Made by a program: the position numbers and the translations under genes. Under the pieces are notes generated by a model. It did not search any database. It was given only the letters and a program-made list of their open reading frames with translations, and had not been told where the DNA came from. From positions 1 through 16,185 of IMG/VR virus record IMGVR_UViG_2609460125_000016: a stretch of 16,185 nt of DNA, one strand, 5' to 3'. The stretch is from a virus (Duplodnaviria > Heunggongvirae > Uroviricota > Caudoviricetes). Positions within the stretch are counted from its first letter, which is position 1; every line of letters starts with the position of its first letter. This document shows positions 1 to 10,260 of this stretch, piece by piece.

Positions 1-183
1 TTAACTCTCAAGCCTCGAGCCAAGCCTGTTTCAGAAGCCCCGTTACCTGATGAACCCATTCAGGGACACGCTGTTGCTGCAAATATCTCTGCGATTGAAA
101 AGCAGATGGAAGCGGCAGCAAACAAAGGGGATGTAGAGACGTACCGCAAGCTCAAGGCGCAACTGAATAAAGGAATTCGATAA
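1..183 (+). CDS. Scaffolding protein (P22 gp8-like), C-terminal fragment; 5-prime end lies outside the window
   Basis: Frame-1 translation ends ...[21 protein letters not shown] at TAA 181-183, overlapping the coat ATG as TAATG. The C-terminal tail resembles the coat-binding end of P22-family scaffold proteins (from memory). Synteny: immediately upstream of coat. Confidence 0.75.
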
Positions 184-1477
184 TGGCATTAAATGAAGGT
201 CAACTGGTCACGTATGCTCTGGATGAAATCATCGAAACCGTCCAGAACCTGACGCCAATGGCGTCCAAAGTGACAAAATACACCCCTCCGGCAGAATCCA
301 TGCAACGTTCAAGCAACACCGTGTGGATGCCTGTTGAGCAGGAAGCGCCAACTCAGACTGGCTGGGATTTAACTGGAAACGCTACCGGGATTCTGGAGCT
401 CTCCGTAAAATGCAACATGGGTGATCCGGATAACGATTTCTTCGAGCTTCGTGCAGATGACCTGCGTGATGAGCGTTCTTACCGTCGCCGCATCCAGGCA
501 TCCGCCAAAAACTGGCGAATAACATTGAGTCAGCGATTGCCAAACAGGCAACTGAAATGGGCTCGCTTGTTGTTCACGATACCCGCGCAATTGGTCCATC
601 TACTGGCCTGTCTGGCTGGGATTTTGTGTCTGATGCAGAGCGCCTGATGTTCTCCCGTGAGCTAAACCGCGATATGGGCATCAGTTACTTCCTGAACCCT
701 GACGATTACCGCAAAGCAGGCCGCAACCTGGTAGATGGTGACATCTTCGGGCGCGTTACTGAAGACGCGTATCGCAACGGTACTATTCAGCGTCAGATTG
801 CTGGCTTTGATGAAATTCTTCGCTCACCGAAACTTCCGGCAGTTACCAAGTCAACCGCTACTGGTGTAACTGTTTCTGGTGCGCAGAAGTTTAAGCCGCA
901 GGCATACACCCTTGATACCGATGGTAACAAAGAGAACGTCGACAACCGTGTTGCAACGGTGACCGTATCCTCCACCACCGGATTTAAGCGCGGCGACAAA
1001 ATCAGTTTCACTGGTGTGAAATTCCTGTCTCAGATGGCGAAGAACGTGCTAACTGATGATGCTACTTTCTCAATCACCCGTGTGATCGATGGTACTCACA
1101 TCGAAATCACGCCGAAGCCGATTGCACTGGATGACGCGTCACTGACAAAAGAAGAGAAGGCTTACGCTAACGTAAACACCTCTCTTGCTGATACCACTAC
1201 GGTAAACGTTCTGAACGTGGCAACAACCACCGCTAACGTGTTCTGGGCTGATGACTCAATCCGCCTGCTGTCTCAGCCGATCCCGGTAACCCATGAACTG
1301 TTTGCTGGTATGAAAACGTCTTCCTTCAGCATTCCTGGCATTGGTGTTAACGGCATCTTCGCAACGCAGGGTGATATCAACACTCTGTCTGGTAAGTGCC
1401 GTATTGCTGTGTGGTATTCAGCATGTGCTGTACGACCAGAGGCAATTGGTGTTGGTCTGCCTAACCAGACTGCGTGA
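183..1477 (+). pseudogene. Major capsid (coat) protein, P22 gp5-like, interrupted by a 1-nt frame disruption in an A5 run at 507-511
   Basis: ORF 183..647 ([18 protein letters not shown]...[10 protein letters not shown]) and ORF 557..1477 (MGSLVV...[10 protein letters not shown]...GVGLPNQTA*) are consecutive segments of one P22-type coat protein in two frames. The frame changes inside gccaaaaactggcg; one extra A would give ...[23 protein letters not shown]... in a single frame. Confidence 0.85.
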
Positions 1478-1484
1478 TAACCAG

Positions 1485-1508
1485 AGGGAGCTTCGGCTCC
1501 CTTTTTTA
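1485..1508 (+). terminator. Rho-independent terminator just downstream of the coat gene
   Basis: GC-rich 7-bp stem agggagc / gctccct with a ttcg tetraloop (1485-1502), followed directly by a T5-6 run. Confidence 0.7.
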
Positions 1509-1521
1509 TCTGGAGACAAGC

Positions 1522-1776
1522 ATGACACACATGATCTTTCGTCATGGCGACATGAAGAAATGGAAAGGCGTTGGATACGACTTTGAAATCGTGAAAGCCG
1601 AAGAGCTTCAGGAATATCTGGATGCTGGCTGGTTTGCACATCCTGATGATCTTCTGAAGGATGTTGCAGAGCCAGATCCAGATCCAGAGCCAGAGCCAGA
1701 GCAAGAAGAAAAACAGCGTAAAAAGCCTGGTCGAAAACCTAAGGCGGCAGCAGATGAACCTGACAACGAAGGGTGA
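1522..1776 (+). CDS. Small acidic hypothetical protein (84 aa) with a [10 protein letters not shown] low-complexity segment and a basic C-terminal tail
   Basis: ATG at 1522 preceded by GGAG (1512-1515) at good spacing. [41 protein letters not shown]...[34 protein letters not shown]. Sits between the coat terminator and gp4 and overlaps the gp4 start by 23 nt. I do not recognise a known function. Confidence 0.55.
1665..1706 (+). repeat. Tandem hexanucleotide repeat (NCMAGA, about 7 units) inside the small ORF
   Basis: tgcaga gccaga tccaga tccaga gccaga gccaga gcaaga read directly; encodes (E)[12 protein letters not shown] in the ORF frame. Confidence 0.9.
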
Positions 1777-2254
1777 TTTAGTTCTTGCGGCATTACGTAA
1801 GCTCGGTGTGGCATCAAATGCCACGTTAACCGATGTCGAACCGCAGTCCATGGAAGATGGCGTCAACGACCTTGAAATGATGATGGCTGAATGGCTTGGC
1901 GGTGATGTGTCACCTGGTATCAACGTTGGCTACATTTTTGCTGATGCAGATGTCGCTCCAGATCCGGGAGATGAGCACGGATTATCAAATAACGCTATAA
2001 ATGCCGTCATTTTCAACCTTGCCTGCCGCATTGCTCCAGATTATGCGCTGGAAGCGTCAGCAAAACTTATAACGACTGCCAGATACGGGAAAGAGCGACT
2101 CGTCAAACTGTCTGCAATGGACAGAGCAAAAGCCGCTAAATGTAAGTCAGGTTATCCAAACCGTATGCCTGTTGGTAGCGGTAATCAGTTGGCGAAGTGG
2201 AACGGTTGGAATTACTTCCATCGGAAGGAACCTTGCGATAACGGGAGCGAATAA
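1754..2254 (+). CDS. Head completion / tail accessory protein, P22 gp4-like
   Basis: Translation from ATG 1754: [47 protein letters not shown]...[17 protein letters not shown]..., matching the P22 gp4 N-terminus as recalled ([29 protein letters not shown]). Synteny after coat. Confidence 0.85.
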
Positions 2255-3672
2255 TGCCGATTCAGCAACTTCCGCTTATGAAAGGTGTCGGCAAAGACTT
2301 TAGAAACGCCGACTATATCGACTATCTGCCAGTGAATATGTTGGCTACACCCAAAGAAATCCTGAACAGCAGCGGATATCTTCGCTCATTCCCGGGCATT
2401 GCCAAACGCTCTGATGTAAACGGCGTATCGCGCGGAGTTGAGTACAACATGGCGCAGAGTGCTGTTTATCGCGTGTGTGGCGGCAAGCTCTACAAAGGCG
2501 AAAGTGAAGTCGGTGATGTTGCCGGAAGTGGTCGCGTATCAATGGCGCATGGTCGAACATCTCAGGCGGTAGGCGTTAACGGGCAACTGGTCGAATACCG
2601 CTATGATGGCACGGTTAAAACCGTCTCAAACTGGCCTGCAGACAGCGGGTTTACGCAGTATGAGTTAGGTTCGGTTCGTGATATTACGCGCTTACGTGGG
2701 CGTTATGCGTGGTCAAAAGACGGTACTGATTCATGGTTTATCACTGACCTTGAAGACGAATCGCACCCTGACCGCTACAGCGCACAATATCGCGCAGAAT
2801 CGCAGCCTGACGGCATCATCGGCATCGGAACATGGCGAGACTTCATCGTCTGCTTTGGTTCATCAACGATTGAATATTTCTCCCTGACTGGTGCAACCAC
2901 TGTTGGTGCCGCGTTGTATGTCGCACAGCCATCGCTGATGGTGCAGAAAGGCATTGCCGGAACTTACTGCAAAACGCCGTTTGCTGATTCCTATGCGTTT
3001 ATCAGCAATCCGGCAACAGGTGCGCCGTCTGTATATATCATCGGCTCCGGTCAGGTATCACCAATCGCCAGCGCGAGCATTGAGAAAATACTACGCTCCT
3101 ACACTGCTGATGAACTGGCTGATGGCGTGATGGAATCGTTGCGGTTTGATGCGCATGAGTTACTGATTATCCACCTTCCGCGCCATGTTCTCGTGTACGA
3201 CGCATCTTCAAGCGCCAATGGTCCGCAATGGTGTGTGCTGAAAACAGGTCTGTATGACGATGTGTACCGCGCTATCGACTTCATTTACGAAGGCAATCAG
3301 ATAACGTGCGGCGATAAGCTGGAGTCCGTGACCGGGAAATTGCAATTCGACATCAGCAGCCAGTACGACAAGCAACAGGAACATCTTCTGTTTACTCCGC
3401 TGTTCAAAGCGGATAACGCCAGAGTGTTCGACCTTGAGGTTGAATCGTCAACTGGCGTTGCTCAGTACGCTGACCGCCTTTTTCTCTCTGCAACCACTGA
3501 CGGCATAAATTACGGTCGTGAGCAGATGATTGAGCAGAATGAACCGTTCGTTTACGACAAACGTGTTTTGTGGAAGCGAGTCGGGCGCATCAGGAAAAAT
3601 GTCGGCTTCAAATTGCGCATTATCACGAAGTCACCAGTCACTCTGTCTGGCGCTCAGATAAGGATTGAGTAA
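2254..3672 (+). CDS. Tail accessory / packaged-DNA stabilisation protein, P22 gp10-like
   Basis: 472-aa ORF starting [49 protein letters not shown]..., near-colinear with P22 gp10 as recalled. RBS gggagcgaataATG; TAATG overlap with gp4. Confidence 0.9.
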
Positions 3673-4520
3673 TGGCGGATTCGAATCTCAATGTGCCGGT
3701 AATCATTCAGGCTACACGGCTCGACACATCAGTCCTTCCACGCAATATCTTCTCGCAGTCGTATCTGCTTTACGTTATCGCACAGGGCACTGATGTTGGT
3801 AACGTGGCTAACAAGGCCAACGAGGCCGGGCAGGGCGCTTATGACGCACAAGTCAGGAACGATGAGCAGGATGTGATTCTGGTCGATCACGAAATTCGAC
3901 TGGCATCAGCTGAAGCGAAGATACAGGACCACGAAACAAGGATCACTAACGCAGAAGCAGCGATAGTCAGCCTTGACTCACGATTAACGACAGCAGAAAA
4001 CGATATTGATTATCTGACGGATGAAGTTGTCGCCATTCAAAACACGCTCTCAGACCATGAAACGCGCATCGATGCTCTTGAGTATGCCACTACTCGTAAG
4101 AAATCAGAGGTTGTTTACTCTGGCGTATCAGTCACCATCCCGACAGCGCCGACTAACCTTGTTAGCCTGCTGAAAACGCTCACGCCGTCATCCGGGACGT
4201 TGGCACCATTCTTCGACACTGTTAACAACAAGATGGTTGTGTTCAACGAGAACAAAACCTTGTTCTTCAAGCTGTCGATCGTCGGGACGTGGCCCAGCGG
4301 AACCGCCAACAGGTCAATGCAGCTAACCTTTTCCGGCTCTGTTCCTGATACGCTGGTCAGCAGTCGTAATGCGGCGACAACAACCGACAACATCCTGTTA
4401 GCTACGTTCTTCAGCGTGGATAAAGACGGCTTTCTTGCCACAAATGGAAGCACGTTAACCATTCAGTCAAATGGTGCGGCGTTTACTGCCACAACCATCA
4501 AGATAATCGCGGAGCAGTAA
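3672..4520 (+). CDS. Tail needle protein (gp26-like N-terminal domain) with a divergent, probably knob-type C-terminal domain
   Basis: N-terminus [68 protein letters not shown] matches the P22 gp26 N-terminus as recalled, followed by a heptad-like coiled-coil segment. The C-terminal ~140 aa is unlike the P22 gp26 tip and resembles the knob-bearing needles of Sf6/HK620-type phages. Confidence 0.8.
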
Positions 4521-4975
4521 TGATTCAGTTCAAACCAACGCGAAACATCGACCTGATCGAAGCAGTCGGAAATCACCCTGACATTATTGCCGGGAGCAAC
4601 AACGGTGATGGATACGACTACAAGCCTGAATGCCGTTACTTTGAGGTTAACGTGCACGGTCAGTTTGGCGGCATTGTTTACTATCAGGAGATTCAGCCGC
4701 TGACATTCGATTGCCACGCCATGTACCTGCCAGAGGTTCGTGGATTCAGCAAGGAAATCGGGCTGGCGTTCTGGCGATACATTCTGACTAACACCACCGT
4801 TCAGTGCGTCACATCGTTCGCTGCACGCAAATTCCGCCACGGGCAGATGTACTGCGCAATGATTGGCCTTAAGCGTGTAGGGACCATCAAGAAATACTTC
4901 AAAGGCGTGGATGACGTGACGTTTTACAGCGCCACACGCGAAGAACTAATCGACTTCCTGAATCACGGGAGATAG
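4520..4975 (+). CDS. Virion assembly protein at the P22 gp14 position (assigned by synteny)
   Basis: 151-aa ORF with TAATG-type coupling to the needle gene, located between the needle and the ejection proteins as gene 14 is in P22-like phages. I cannot confirm sequence identity from memory. Confidence 0.5.
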   Translation: MIQFKPTRNIDLIEAVGNHPDIIAGSNNGDGYDYKPECRYFEVNVHGQFGGIVYYQEIQPLTFDCHAMYLPEVRGFSKEIGLAFWRYILTNTTVQCVTSFAARKFRHGQMYCAMIGLKRVGTIKKYFKGVDDVTFYSATREELIDFLNHGR

Positions 4976-4977
4976 CC

Positions 4978-5673
4978 ATGTTATATGCATTTAAGCTGGG
5001 CAGAAAACTGCGCGGCGAGGAACCTTATTGCCCTGAAAAAGGCGGGAAAGGTGGCAGTTCTGATAAAAGTGCAAAGTATGCCGCAGAAGCTCAGAAGTAT
5101 GCCGCAGACCTGCAGAATCAGCAGTGGCAGACGATCATGAAAAACCTTGCTCCGTTCACGCCACTCGCTCAGCAGTACGTATCACAATTGCAGAATCTTT
5201 CCTCTCTTCAGGGGCAAGGTCAGGCACTTAACCAGTATTACAACTCTCAGCAGTACAAAGATCTTGCTGGTCAGGCTCGCTATCAGAGTCTGGCGGCAGC
5301 GGAAGCAACAGGTGGATTGGGTTCCACTGCAACCGGTAATCAGTTAGCAACAATCGCACCAACGCTTGGTCAGCAATGGCTATCTGGTCAGATGAACAAC
5401 TACCAGAATCTGGCAAATATTGGTCTTGGCGCACTGCAAGGTCAGGCAAACGCCGGGCAGACATATGCCAACAACATGAGTCAGATTTCGCAGCAAAGTG
5501 CGGCTCTTGCCGCTGCTAATGCCAATAAACCATCAGGTCTTCAGACAGCAATTAGCGGCGGAGCTTCAGGGGCTATGACTGGCGCTGCTCTTGGCTCTAT
5601 TGTTCCAGGACTTGGCACTGGATTAGGTGCGGCAATTGGCGGCGGACTTGGCCTGCTTGGCTCGTTGTTTTAA
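4978..5673 (+). CDS. Ejection (internal virion) protein, P22 gp7-like
   Basis: 231 aa, N-terminus MLYAFKLGRKLRGEEPYCPEKGGKGGSS resembles P22 gp7 as recalled. Q/N/G-rich middle and Gly/Ala-rich hydrophobic C-terminus; size and position match. Confidence 0.75.
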   Translation: MLYAFKLGRKLRGEEPYCPEKGGKGGSSDKSAKYAAEAQKYAADLQNQQWQTIMKNLAPFTPLAQQYVSQLQNLSSLQGQGQALNQYYNSQQYKDLAGQARYQSLAAAEATGGLGSTATGNQLATIAPTLGQQWLSGQMNNYQNLANIGLGALQGQANAGQTYANNMSQISQQSAALAAANANKPSGLQTAISGGASGAMTGAALGSIVPGLGTGLGAAIGGGLGLLGSLF

Positions 5674-5682
5674 GGGGTAATC

Positions 5683-7089
5683 ATGGCTACTTGGCAAGGA
5701 ACAAACGGCGGATTGTTGGCTGGTATCGGCGGCGTCAACTCAAACGCTCCGAGCGTAAATGACATCGGCAATACGCTTCAGCTTATCAGGCAGAACAATG
5801 ATATTGAGCGTTCAGGCGCTAACAATGTTGGGCTGACGGCTTTGCAAGGTCTTTCAGGTATTGCGGGTGTTTTTCAGCAGGAAAAGCAGGCTCAGCGGCA
5901 GAAAGAATTTCAGCAGGCGTACGCTAATGCTTATGCGTCTGGTGATCGCGGTGCTTTGCGTCAGTTGGCTACTGAATATCCAGACCAGATTGAATCCGTT
6001 CGTAAAGGCATGGGATTCATTGATGAAGACCAGCGCAATTCCATCGGTACCTTAGCGGCTGGCGCTCGCCTTGCGGCATCGTCTCCAGAAGCGATGCAAT
6101 CATGGCTGCAAAACAACGCCAAGGAACTGGTGCGCGTCGGCGTTGACCCTAATAACGTTGCTCAGATGTATCAGCAGAACCCTTCAGGATTTGGTGAGTT
6201 TGTTGATCACCTTGGAATGGCCGCGCTTGGTCCGATTGATTACTTCAATGTTCAGGACAAGATGGCTGGTCGTGAAATTGACCGAGGCAGGCTGGCAGAG
6301 ACAATCCGCAGCAATCAGGCTGGCGAGGCACTTCAGGCGAGAGGGCAAAACCTTTCCTATCAGTCAGCAATGACTGGGCACAATATCGCAGCACAACGCT
6401 TGGCTCTGGATCAGCAAGAGTTCGTGTTTAAGATGCAGCAAGCGCAGGAAAAGGCTCAGCAGTTGATTAGCGAAGCACCTAAGCTGTCAGTAAACATGGA
6501 AAAAGGCATCGAGACGGCTGTAAACAATGCCACAGCATCATCAAACTCAGCCAATTCTATGAGTGCGCTTGCTCAACAGTTCAGAGCAGAAAAACCAACG
6601 ACAGGTTTGTTCGGTAACGCACAGAACATGTTCGCAAAACTTACCGGAAGCGATACAACATTGCGTGATTTGCGCATTCGCCAAAATGCCCTTGTTAACA
6701 GTCAGGTCCTTAAATTCCTACCTCCCGGCCCAGCAACGGATAAAGACGTTGAGATCGTTCGGCAGGGTGCGCCAACTGACATGGATAACCCTGAGACGGT
6801 CGCAAGATGGCTTGATGCAATGGCAAACCTTGAGCGACGAAACGCGCAGTTTAATGAGTTTAAAGCCGAGTGGATGAGCGCGAATGGCAACCCTGGACAA
6901 TCGCGTAATGGCGGTCAGATATTGGGGTTGGATGTTAAAAAAGGTGAATCATTGGGGAGTGCCGTTAAGCGGTATATGTCAATGAATACTGACGCAGCGC
7001 CAGCACAAGATTCGACACCTTCAGGAGAACCACGGAATCAGGTTGGATCATATACCTCAAAATCAGGCATTCAATTTACGGTGGAATGA
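5683..7089 (+). CDS. Ejection (internal virion) protein, P22 gp20-like
   Basis: 468 aa (P22 gp20 is of similar length, as recalled); RBS aaggggtaatcATG; lies between the gp7-like and gp16-like genes. Confidence 0.7.
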
Positions 7090-9350
7090 TGAAAGTAACT
7101 GCAAACGGTAAGACATTTACCTTTCCTGATGGTACAAGCACCGAAGATATTGGCACCGCCATTGATGAGTATTTTGCTGGTCAGGCTGTTCAGCAACAAA
7201 CAGTTAATCAGGCCAATAATGCACCAACACGGGAAGAACCCTCATTGATGCAACAAGCTGGCGATTGGCTCACTGGTGGTCAAAGTGCAGGGCAAATTGC
7301 AGAGCAGGCTGGTCGTGGTCTGGTAAACATACCATTCGACGTATTACAGGGCGGCGCAAGCCTGATTAATGCAATCAGTCAGGGGCTTGGTGGGCCAAAA
7401 GTATTGGATGATGTCTATCGTCCAGTCGACCGACCGACAGATCCTTACGCGCAAGCTGGAGAGTCAATAGGCGGTTATCTTGTTCCTGGAGCAGGTGTAA
7501 CTGGAAACATGGTCATTGGTTCTCTCGCTGACGCGGCGAATCAACGGGGTGATTTTGCCGAAAATGCCGCTATTAATGCCGGACTTAACATTGCTACGCA
7601 TGGCCTGATAAATGGCGTTACCCATGGTGTTCGTGGTGCATCAAATATAATTAGTGGCAATAAAACATCTGCACAGAGAGCGACCACTGCGGCAACAGAA
7701 ACATCACCATTCTCCGGTACTGCGCCAACAGAAACATCACCATTCTCCGGTGATGCCGCTGCAGCAACAAATCCTGCGGTTCATGCCGCAGAGGCAAGAG
7801 CAGCACAAGGTGTACCAATGACGCCTGCGACGAGGGACCCAGAGGAGGTCGTCCGCACAGTAGCAGCACAAAAAAGGCCAAATCTCGCTTCATCGCTTGA
7901 TGAACTAGATATCAATCCTCAGGCTGAAGTTCTGGAGTCTGCTGAAAGGCTTAATGTTGATTCATTACTCCCTTCACACTTTTCCGGGAACGAGCAATAC
8001 AAGGCAGTTGAGCAAGCAATCAAGTCCCGTGCGGGTTCTGCTCTACGGGTGCAGGAAAATGAAGCAATCAGGCAACTAGCACAGGGCGCGGGGGAGATAA
8101 TTGATCGCGTTTCCGGTGCAAAAGATGCTCTTGGTATGAGCGACAAGTTTATTGATACGATCAATGGAAGAATGTCTGCGCTGATGAAACGAAGCGACCA
8201 GCTTTATCGCAATGTTGAAAAGGCGATGCCTGCAGGTGCAAAAATTGATGCGCCATCAACAAGGTCAATGCTCAAACAGGTGGCAGAAGATCTTGGCGGG
8301 ATGAAAAACCTTGACCCTATTGAAAAGAGAGTCTTTCGGGCAGTTAATCCAGGCAAGAACGGCGCATTAACTTATGCAAATCTCAATAAGCAACGACGAC
8401 TTGTTGGTGATGCACTTCATAAGAATTCTGGACCATATAAAGATGCTGATCGCGCTGCTTTATCGAGGCTTTACGGTTCGCTCGCCGATGATCAAAAGGC
8501 GGCGCTGTCAGAGACAAATGCATTACGTGATTTTGAAGTTGCTCAGAGGCTTGTTCAGATGCGAAAAAGCATGGAAGAGCAAATGATTAATCTAACTGGC
8601 AGAACGCTGAACGGTGATGTTTCTCGCAAAGCAACTACAGCACTACAGGCAATGTCGAAAGGCGATGCCAAAGGATTTCGTGAATTGATGCAAAACACGC
8701 CGTCCAGGAAGCTAAGAACCGAGCTACTGGGAACAGGTCTTCGGGATATGCTTTCGAACGGAAAACGTGGCGCTGATTTTAATCCTGCAGGGTTTGCTGA
8801 CTGGTATCAAAACATGTTAGCAAACGGGCAGATGCGCAATCTTGCCAGACATTTACCAAAAGAGACTATGTCAGGTCTGAACGATGTATATAAGGTCGCA
8901 AAGGCTATCAAAGATGCAAAATCTTACGAGATAACTACAGGAAGACTAAACGAGTTCGTCAAACGGTTTAATCGCGTCACTGCGGCAAATGAATTTGTTG
9001 CTAACCATGCCCAACGCATTGGCACTGCGGTTGGTTCAACTGTGTCAGGACCGTTCAGTGCAGTAGGTGCTGTTGCTGGGTCAGAAATTGGGGCAAAAGT
9101 CGCCAGCAAAATCAGGGCGATGGGCGGCGCTGCATCAATGGAATCTGCAGAAAAGCTAATTAGCTCACCAGAATTCCAGAAAGCAGCAAGACTGGCAGTA
9201 AGACAAGCACCAGAAAGCATCGTTGATACAACTGTAAGACGCTCTTCTGCTTGGCGATCGTTTTACAACTCACTTCCAGAATCAGATAAGAAAACCATAT
9301 CAAGGCTAGGCATCATGTACTGGATGAACAGTGATGATAACCAGAAGTAA
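7086..9350 (+). CDS. Ejection (internal virion) protein, P22 gp16-like, enlarged with an internal low-complexity region
   Basis: 754-aa ORF overlapping the gp20-like stop (ATGATG start at 7086). Last large gene before the immI position, as gene 16 is in P22. Ala/Thr/Ser/Gly-rich segments including an 11-aa tandem duplication. Confidence 0.65.
7686..7751 (+). repeat. 33-bp in-frame tandem duplication (2 units, 32/33 identical) inside the gp16-like gene
   Basis: actgcgGcaacagaaacatcaccattctccggt followed by actgcgCcaacagaaacatcaccattctccggt; encodes [11 protein letters not shown] then [11 protein letters not shown]. Confidence 0.95.
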
Positions 9351-9367
9351 CGGAAAGCCACGGATGG

Positions 9368-9628
9368 TTAGTTGCAGTCTTTTTTATATAGCTCTTTGAG
9401 AGTATCAAAGACAATTTTCTTAACCATATCGGATTGTTGGTCTGCAATACGCTCTGCATCGTCAATGTAAACAGATGCAGAGCTTTGTTTAGCCAATGAT
9501 TCTTCAATCGCTGCAATTATCTCTGAGTTCAGCGACCTGTTATTCATCTTCGCACGCTGCTTAATTTTCGCGTGGAGTTCATGCGGAAGTCTCAAGTGAA
9601 ACTGCGCCTCGTCGTATTTGCTGTACAT
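9368..9628 (-). CDS. mnt: Mnt-like ribbon-helix-helix repressor (Arc/MetJ family)
   Basis: Minus-strand ORF from ATG (rc) at 9628 with AAGGA RBS: MYSKYDEAQFHLRLPHELHAKIKQRAKMNNRSLNSEIIAAIEESLAKQ...DDAERIADQQSDMVKKIVFDTLKELYKKDCN. Aligns over its length with P22 Mnt as recalled (...NGRSMNSELLQIV...NDAERLADEQSELVKKMVFDTLKDLYKK). Same position and orientation as mnt in P22 immI. Confidence 0.75.
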   Translation of the reverse strand: MYSKYDEAQFHLRLPHELHAKIKQRAKMNNRSLNSEIIAAIEESLAKQSSASVYIDDAERIADQQSDMVKKIVFDTLKELYKKDCN

Positions 9629-9759
9629 CCTTGATGCCTCACCAATTGGGTGGAATGGCATCGTAACTTACTGGATAAATACTCAATAGTACCATTTCGG
9701 TATGCAATCACATCATGGTTGCATCATATCATTCGTCTGGAGCAATGAAATGTCAGATA
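9629..9759 (-). promoter_or_regulatory. Putative mnt promoter/operator region (intergenic, between the HNH gene and mnt)
   Basis: 131-bp non-coding gap directly upstream of mnt containing short inverted motifs (atgcaa...ttgcat flanking catcat repeats). No P22 O-mnt-like palindrome recognised. Assignment is positional only. Confidence 0.25.
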
Positions 9760-10260
9760 TCACCTACTCAACAGATGGTCAGCAACCATGTTTGCTGCCT
9801 TATAAGCTATAGCCGCTTCATCAATGGTGTTGAATCTCCCAAGGGTTATGTTTTTACCTGAGACATTTATCTGAGCTTGCCATTGATTTCTGGCTTGACA
9901 GAAAGTTACCCCCTTGATTCCAGCATTGCTATTTCGAGGTCCGACATTTAATGCATTTACGACTCTGCTGACATCCCTAAGGTTTGAGATTGCGTTATTT
10001 CTTCTGTTTCTATCAATGTGGTCAATCTCTTGTTTGGGCCATTCGCCATATACATACAGCCAGGCAAGTCTATGTGCAAAATATCTTACGCCATCAATAT
10101 TAATTGCGTTATATCCATAAGAAATTGTGCCAGCAACTTTCCCAACAGCACCTCTGGCGCTTAATTTCTTTTTCCAAGTGAAAATTCCTGTTTCTTTATT
10201 GTAATCGAGAACCTCCATAAGGCGCTCCCGAGTTACTACCTCGTGACGTCTCTTACTCAT
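9760..10260 (-). CDS. HNH homing-type endonuclease with C-terminal AP2-like DNA-binding domain
   Basis: Start ATG (rc) at 10260 with RBS ggagaaaataATG. Protein MSKRRHEVV...[32 protein letters not shown] (HNH motif) ...[45 protein letters not shown] (AP2-like). The in-frame ATG at 10302 lacks an RBS. Confidence 0.8.

Follow-up and report, generated by a model that had tools for sequence, protein, structure and literature searches.

The gp16 protein of phage P22 is packaged in the virion, is ejected before the DNA, and associates with the inner membrane (PMC10461980). The gp16 protein of T7 combines an N-terminal transglycosylase with an extended, nonglobular "molecular tape" (residues 157 to 228) and a large C-terminal part (PMC8954989). 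Nearest to the locus described here are phages Sf101 and APC_JM3.2, whose proteins gp13 and gp29 (911 aa; variously annotated as "transglycosylase" and "lytic tail fiber protein") carry an SLT lytic-transglycosylase domain (PF01464, E 3e-25) at their N terminus. Such fusions of an SLT domain to a gp16-type body occur at L001 7397-10132 (Sf101), at L008 397-3165, and in proteins P0025-P0071, and the SLT-bearing relatives come from P22-like phages and prophages of E. coli, Shigella, Serratia, Klebsiella, and Pluralibacter. The protein that we consider here, a predicted ejection protein, has 754 aa.

This protein is encoded by an intact open reading frame (ORF; positions 7086 to 9350, plus strand, from the ORF list and its translation) in the 16,185-nt stretch of viral DNA that we analyzed (the window), and two NCBI E. 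coli assemblies contain the identical protein. A sibling contig, L018 (GCA_047852145.1 ABXVTY010000093.1), corresponds to positions 70 to 15322 of the window with 0 mismatches and a single 1-nt gap. Gene calls and Pfam labels on L018 give a late region consisting of scaffold, coat, gp4, gp10, needle, gp14, gp7, gp20, the 754-aa gene, arc/mnt, an HNH gene, and tailspike, followed at the right end by a cluster of gtrA, gtrB, and a 421-aa gene and then by the integrase. Because this late region is P22-like, the window is, by its gene content, an E. coli Lederbergvirus-type (P22-like) prophage. The local order is gp14–gp7–gp20–754-aa gene–arc/mnt–tailspike, with precomputed Pfam matches on L018 to P22_gp7, Inj_translocase, and Phage_P22_gp16 (PF26808); the gene fills the third slot of the gp7–gp20–gp16 block, whose order is identical in P22 and Sf101, and by its place corresponds to P22 gene 16, i.e., the gene for the third ejection protein.

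Several other features of the window were recorded along the way. The sole difference from L018 over 15.25 kb is at positions 507 to 511, where the window has an A5 run and L018 has A6; the P22-type major coat gene, a single 431-aa gene in L018, is split by the A5 run into overlapping ORFs at 183..647 and 557..1477 in the window, which may reflect either a sequencing error in the homopolymer or a genuine frameshift that inactivates the gene. An HNH_3/AP2-domain gene (~9760 to 10218, minus strand) separates the tailspike from the arc/mnt immunity genes, and the O-antigen-modification cluster of gtrA, gtrB, and the 421-aa gene (the last without a Pfam match) occupies positions 12062 to 14616 (minus strand) and adjoins the integrase (both sets of coordinates are those of L018 plus 68). 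Tandem Repeats Finder reports an imperfect hexanucleotide repeat, CAGAGC/CAGATC, of 6.7 copies at positions 1667 to 1706, which encodes an acidic 12-residue run near the C terminus of a small gene that ends at 1776, between the coat and gp4 genes. At positions 5070 to 5117, in the gp7-like ejection-protein gene, a 21- to 22-nt repeat of 2.3 copies with indels encodes AKYAAEAQKYAADLQ.

Similarity to known phage proteins divides the 754-aa protein into segments. BLASTP against P22 gp16 yields 77% identity over aa 2 to 177, with the remainder at E > 0.7. By tblastn against 50,697 phage records, aa 1 to 177/178 match gp16 of P22 and epsilon34 at 77 to 82%, and aa ~257 to 754 match "transglycosylase / DNA transfer" proteins of other podophages (Ralstonia RSK1 and Firinga, Lumpael, IME_EC2, and sortkaff) at 28 to 32%; in the same search, aa 178 to 256 align with no phage homologue apart from Sf101 and APC_JM3.2, which match over nearly the full length. 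Since the BLASTP and tblastn similarity splits at aa ~177 and ~257, the alignments mark the protein as a mosaic, composed (all on the plus strand) of an N-terminal module of the P22/epsilon34 gp16 type (aa 1 to 177; 7086..7616), an intermodule linker (aa 178 to 256; 7617..7853), and a different, alpha-helical C-terminal module (aa 257 to 754; 7854..9347), which agrees with the extreme mosaicism known for P22-like ejection proteins (PMC10461980). The C-terminal module is not P22-gp16-like by BLASTP, is present in the transglycosylase-carrying ejection protein of Sf101, and is well conserved among homologues; an AlphaFold2 model (66 input sequences) predicts aa ~270 to 620 as confidently helical (pLDDT 70 to 93). 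At the profile level, phrog_770 ("DNA transfer protein") matches aa 1 to 707 (E 5.9e-161).

Other searches with the whole protein came back empty. Local Pfam-A and NCBIfam scans return no family match, PF26808 being known only as a precomputed match, and the SLT domain (PF01464) is absent by the Pfam and NCBIfam scans that detect it in the Sf101 homologue at E 3.3e-25. A PDB sequence search has as its best result a chance match at E 0.74, leaving no solved relative, the P22-like N terminus included, and Foldseek of the AlphaFold2 model against the PDB gives zero matches at E ≤ 0.001. These results refine two statements of an earlier sequence-only reading of the window. The protein had been called gp16-like, which is apt for its gene position, its N-terminal 177 aa, and its profile match, but not, by BLASTP, for the C-terminal three quarters; and it had been put at about 145 aa longer than P22 gp16, for which the arithmetic is right (754 versus 609 aa), but the extra length comes from the different module and from neither the repeat nor an extension. 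As a separate length variant, a 16-residue in-frame insertion (IGTAAKVAGAPAKLAGD-like) is located after aa 134 (~7487), within the conserved N-terminal module, in L007, L009, and L012, which are porcine O139/ETEC-type prophages.

The linker is rich in Ala, Thr, Ser, and Pro, is predicted to be unstructured, and holds a tandem array at positions 7686 to 7751 (Tandem Repeats Finder on the window: period 33, 2.0 copies, 96% matches, zero indels, score 125). Both copies of the repeated unit, which we term unit A, are on the plus strand and encode 11 residues: copy 1 (7686-7718; ACTGCGGCAACAGAAACATCACCATTCTCCGGT) is the "A" allele, with G at 7692, and copy 2 (7719-7751; ACTGCGCCAACAGAAACATCACCATTCTCCGGT) is the "P" allele, with C at 7725. 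Read directly, the copies are ACTGCG[G/C]CAACAGAAACATCACCATTCTCCGGT, with G7692 versus C7725 as the sole mismatch. The first base of the array is the start of codon 201 in ORF 7086-9350, so the array is in frame and encodes 22 residues; it is thus an in-frame tandem repeat in the usual sense, head-to-tail, with a period that is a multiple of 3 and within a coding frame. Adjacent 33-mers with at most one mismatch are expected by chance at ~2e-14 per 16 kb under uniform base composition. When the junction was inspected for support for slippage, the repeat could not be extended by even one base on either flank, i.e., flanking microhomology is absent. The 33-bp tandem duplication, in frame and with a one-base difference, had been proposed from the letters of the window, and Tandem Repeats Finder, direct reading, and the ORF frame all confirm it; relative to the one-copy state, it is a true duplication.

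The number of unit A copies varies among relatives, a check that the sequence-only reading had asked for. One copy is present in Sf101 and APC_JM3.2, which share 98% DNA identity with the 754-aa gene from gene nucleotide 101 to its end and 96% protein identity. The gene segment occurs in 50 of 5426 complete E. coli genomes, with one copy of unit A in 44 and two in the other 6 (CFSAN064035, FDN-24, FDN-9, 203740, WCHEC050613, and PK8217), although these frequencies are rough, as the 50 genomes include clonal series (ETEC isolates). The junction between copies was also detected in 3 IMG/VR contigs and 2 metagenome contigs, with 0 matches among GTDB species-representative genomes, and two-copy protein variants with a length of 922 aa are recorded on 19 and 12 contigs. 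As such, unit A differs in copy number among alleles that are otherwise near-identical.

A second variable repeat starts three bases past the unit A array. Unit B (7755..7784, plus strand; 30 bp, 10 residues; GCCGCTGCAGCAACAAATCCTGCGGTTCAT) is single in the window and present in 2 to 3 copies in other prophages, and it is flanked by a 5-bp direct repeat, GCCGC (7755-7759 and 7785-7789). This is the classic configuration; unit A, without flanking microhomology, is less typical of simple slippage. The unit B junction is found in 6 complete E. coli genomes, different from the six with the unit A duplication (the DNA of L006 has three copies), with 0 matches in the IMG/VR scan. Across 41 proteins, the combinations of unit A and unit B copies are (1,1) in 17, (2,1) in 12, (1,2) in 10, and (1,3) in 1; the remaining protein was tallied as (1,0), its lone unit B copy having evaded the search pattern through a Thr-to-Ser change. 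Neither joint expansion of both units nor more than two copies of unit A was found in these 41 proteins. A common descent of units A and B from one ancient repeat was considered and set aside: 10 of the first 12 nt agree between them, which is weak for Ala/Thr codons, and the remainder is unalignable. On the annotation side, many complete genomes (L005, L006, and L009-L013) have the gene labeled by RefSeq/PGAP as a partial pseudogene ("incomplete; partial in the middle of a contig"); in every one of them, the frame is open throughout the compared region, from the equivalent of window position 7270 to the terminal stop; the labels likely stem from a reference model that expects the SLT-bearing form.

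Units A and B sit in the part of the protein that varies most. Residues 190 to 250 include 16 Ala, 11 Thr, 6 Ser, and 6 Pro among 61 positions. In a conservation profile of 59 homologues, each of <90% identity, aa 196 to 240 have an alignment occupancy of 0.13 to 0.64 and an identity to the query of 0.02 to 0.11, which is the protein-wide minimum, with well-conserved blocks on either side; in homologues of 60 to 70% identity, the linker stretch is unalignable and variable in length, with a similar abundance of Ala, Pro, Ser, Thr, and Gln. In the AlphaFold2 model, aa 172 to 229 are devoid of secondary structure, and the lowest pLDDT of the protein (23 to 31) is in the block at aa 181 to 230. 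However, pLDDT is <50 across all of aa 34 to 270, beyond the linker, and because low confidence is not limited to the linker, low pLDDT by itself is weak evidence for disorder, supportive without being specific. Low conservation, frequent indels, biased composition, and the lack of predicted structure are together what is looked for in a disordered linker, and the best reading of aa 178 to 256 is a predicted disordered interdomain tether that forms the least constrained segment of the protein. The earlier suggestion that this flexible region may tolerate length change thus holds up: unit B occurs one to three times in relatives, and the region is lowest in conservation, occupancy, and model confidence.

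The flanks of the array bear on its origin. Two linked SNPs, G7836 and G7847 (7836..7847, plus strand), 85 to 96 bp downstream of the array, are private to all examined two-copy alleles: among 14 aligned loci, all four two-copy alleles have them and none of the ten one-copy alleles does, and their states are the same in L015-L020 (three IMG/VR contigs, two metagenome contigs, and L018). Over positions 7752 to 7860, the set of complete genomes with at least 99% identity to the window coincides with the set of six that carry the duplication, and the remaining 42 reach at most 96.3% identity; for an association of 6/6 versus 0/42 in 48 genomes, the chance is 1 in C(48,6), or ~8e-8 (calculated by hand). 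Because all two-copy alleles share this private downstream haplotype, the duplication, on the aligned sequences, has one origin and is identical by descent. It has nevertheless traveled: the two-copy linker is found behind three N-terminal heads (that of the 754-aa protein, an SLT head beginning MANYRDLL in a 922-aa protein, and a head beginning MAYSREQL in a 749-aa protein), and two-copy isolates have been recorded in the UK, China, and Pakistan, from chickens, humans, and sewage. The duplication is therefore young relative to the gene family and not a recent event private to the source genome. "Recent," as it had been described, applies in this relative sense only, the duplication being inherited and common to prophages from several countries and hosts behind three N-terminal modules.

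The single mismatch between copies had been taken to indicate recency, and as a clock this does not hold. At the mismatch codon, one-copy alleles have GCA (Ala), CCA (Pro), or CTA (Leu), and two-copy alleles come as A-P (the window, CFSAN064035, L015, and L018), P-P (PK8217, WCHEC050613, L016, L017, L019, and L020), and A-A (P0127). Since the site is polymorphic in the population and exchangeable by recombination or conversion between copies, the mismatch, judged from these alleles, neither dates the duplication nor can be read as divergence after it. At the variable sites of the 14 loci, the A-P sublineage has private changes at 7500, 7624, and 7853. Derivation of A-P by unequal crossover between A-type and P-type one-copy alleles would call for an A-type left flank, which is unsupported; the window has the private changes G7500A and G7624A. 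G7692 may have come from a point mutation or within a short stretch of imported sequence, and the A-P arrangement may also reflect a short conversion tract.

Taking these observations together, the array is probably an inherited, in-frame 33-bp length variant of single origin, near-neutral, in the predicted disordered linker of the third ejection protein. Under this explanation, the unit A duplication arose once, probably through replication slippage or unequal exchange, and was then carried by descent and modular recombination onto three different N-terminal heads. The linker accepts several independent in-frame length changes (one to two copies of unit A, one to three of unit B), and the effect of the duplication would be a flexible tether lengthened by 11 residues, with neither folded nor conserved modules touched. 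As the segment is poorly conserved and predicted to be disordered, we infer that the two-copy state is most likely neutral or nearly so.

Were the change adaptive instead, the unit would be a functional motif or part of a tuned linker length that affects how the trans-envelope DNA conduit is assembled or how far it reaches, or that evades exclusion by the host or a prophage. We regard this as unlikely. It would fit with gp16 and gp20 being targets of SieA exclusion and highly mosaic (PMC10461980) and with the spread of the two-copy linker onto three N-terminal backgrounds; it would also fit with the several nonsynonymous alleles at one unit A codon, as repeated variation of this kind (Ala/Pro/Leu) could reflect selection rather than relaxed constraint. 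But the TETSPFSG motif is missing from homologues of 60 to 70% identity, in which the stretch is unalignable and variable in length, the changes through which P22 gp16 is known to escape SieA fall within the C-terminal region of that protein, not in a linker (PMC10461980), and one-copy alleles are the large majority.

Improbable, to a somewhat greater degree, is a hypermutable minisatellite or contingency locus, at which copy number would change frequently and recurrently and the two-copy state would have arisen independently in the source genome. Adjacent units A and B do both vary, one or the other being expanded in 12 of 50 complete genomes, and unit B reaches as many as three copies; yet the unit A duplication is fully linked to the private downstream haplotype in all loci checked, unit A has two copies at most, and A and B are never both expanded in the 41 proteins. 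Moreover, in-frame changes cannot switch expression, and neither recurrent independent changes nor expression switching, the marks of such loci, is what we find at unit A.

Slightly more doubtful again is the idea that units A and B are both short linear motifs or length-setting tether elements under selection, which would tune the spacing of the N- and C-terminal parts in the conduit or alter recognition by exclusion or defense systems; if so, copy number would set the spacing of the N-terminal part (whether or not it bears a transglycosylase head) relative to the C-terminal membrane or cytoplasmic part. Finally, that an assembler turned a single 33-bp unit into two is effectively excluded, even though the source assembly is imperfect (an indel resembling a homopolymer-length error lies elsewhere, relative to L018), because the same unit-unit junction recurs in independent assemblies (the NCBI assembly L018, 6 complete E. 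coli genomes, 3 IMG/VR contigs, and 2 metagenome contigs), two-copy proteins are recorded on dozens of contigs, and the array, at 66 bp in total, is shorter than a standard short read, such that single reads should span it.

As an inherited length variant of the linker, the duplication is an ordinary in-frame repeat polymorphism in a predicted disordered segment, with little wider biological consequence, and its two-copy allele was already in public assemblies, unremarked. Its use is rather as a marker: it identifies one lineage of the ejection-protein gene and could serve for typing and for following recombination among P22-like prophages. Units A and B also amount to a natural experiment in which the intermodule tether tolerates an additional 10 to 20 residues, which would be useful for engineering or modeling ejection proteins of the P22 type. 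There is a caution as well, in that divergence between copies is unreliable for dating if the position at which they differ also varies across the population.

Compared with known systems, the 754-aa protein is like P22 gp16 in its slot in the gp7–gp20–gp16 block, in the 77% identity of its N-terminal 177 aa, and in its matches to phrog_770 and, as precomputed, PF26808; it differs in lacking BLASTP-level similarity past aa 177, in its different and longer C-terminal module, and in its TETSPFSG and ATNPAVH units, which P22 gp16 is without. Sf101 gp13 and APC_JM3.2 gp29 have the same linker and C-terminal module but a single unit A copy and the extra SLT domain at the N terminus. The layout of T7 gp16 is comparable, by analogy, to that of the SLT-bearing relatives, whereas the 754-aa protein is without a transglycosylase domain, and PDB sequence and fold searches gave no relationship to T7 gp16. 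A further parallel is with in-frame tandem repeats that form or lengthen disordered stretches of proteins, such as the repeats of Borg elements (PMC9879509). The array described here differs from these in having only two copies, a single origin, and a low frequency, with no sign of a genome-wide repeat-generating process; it resembles them in its near-perfect head-to-tail units, in a period divisible by 3, in its position in a low-complexity, predicted disordered segment, and in its variability among close relatives.
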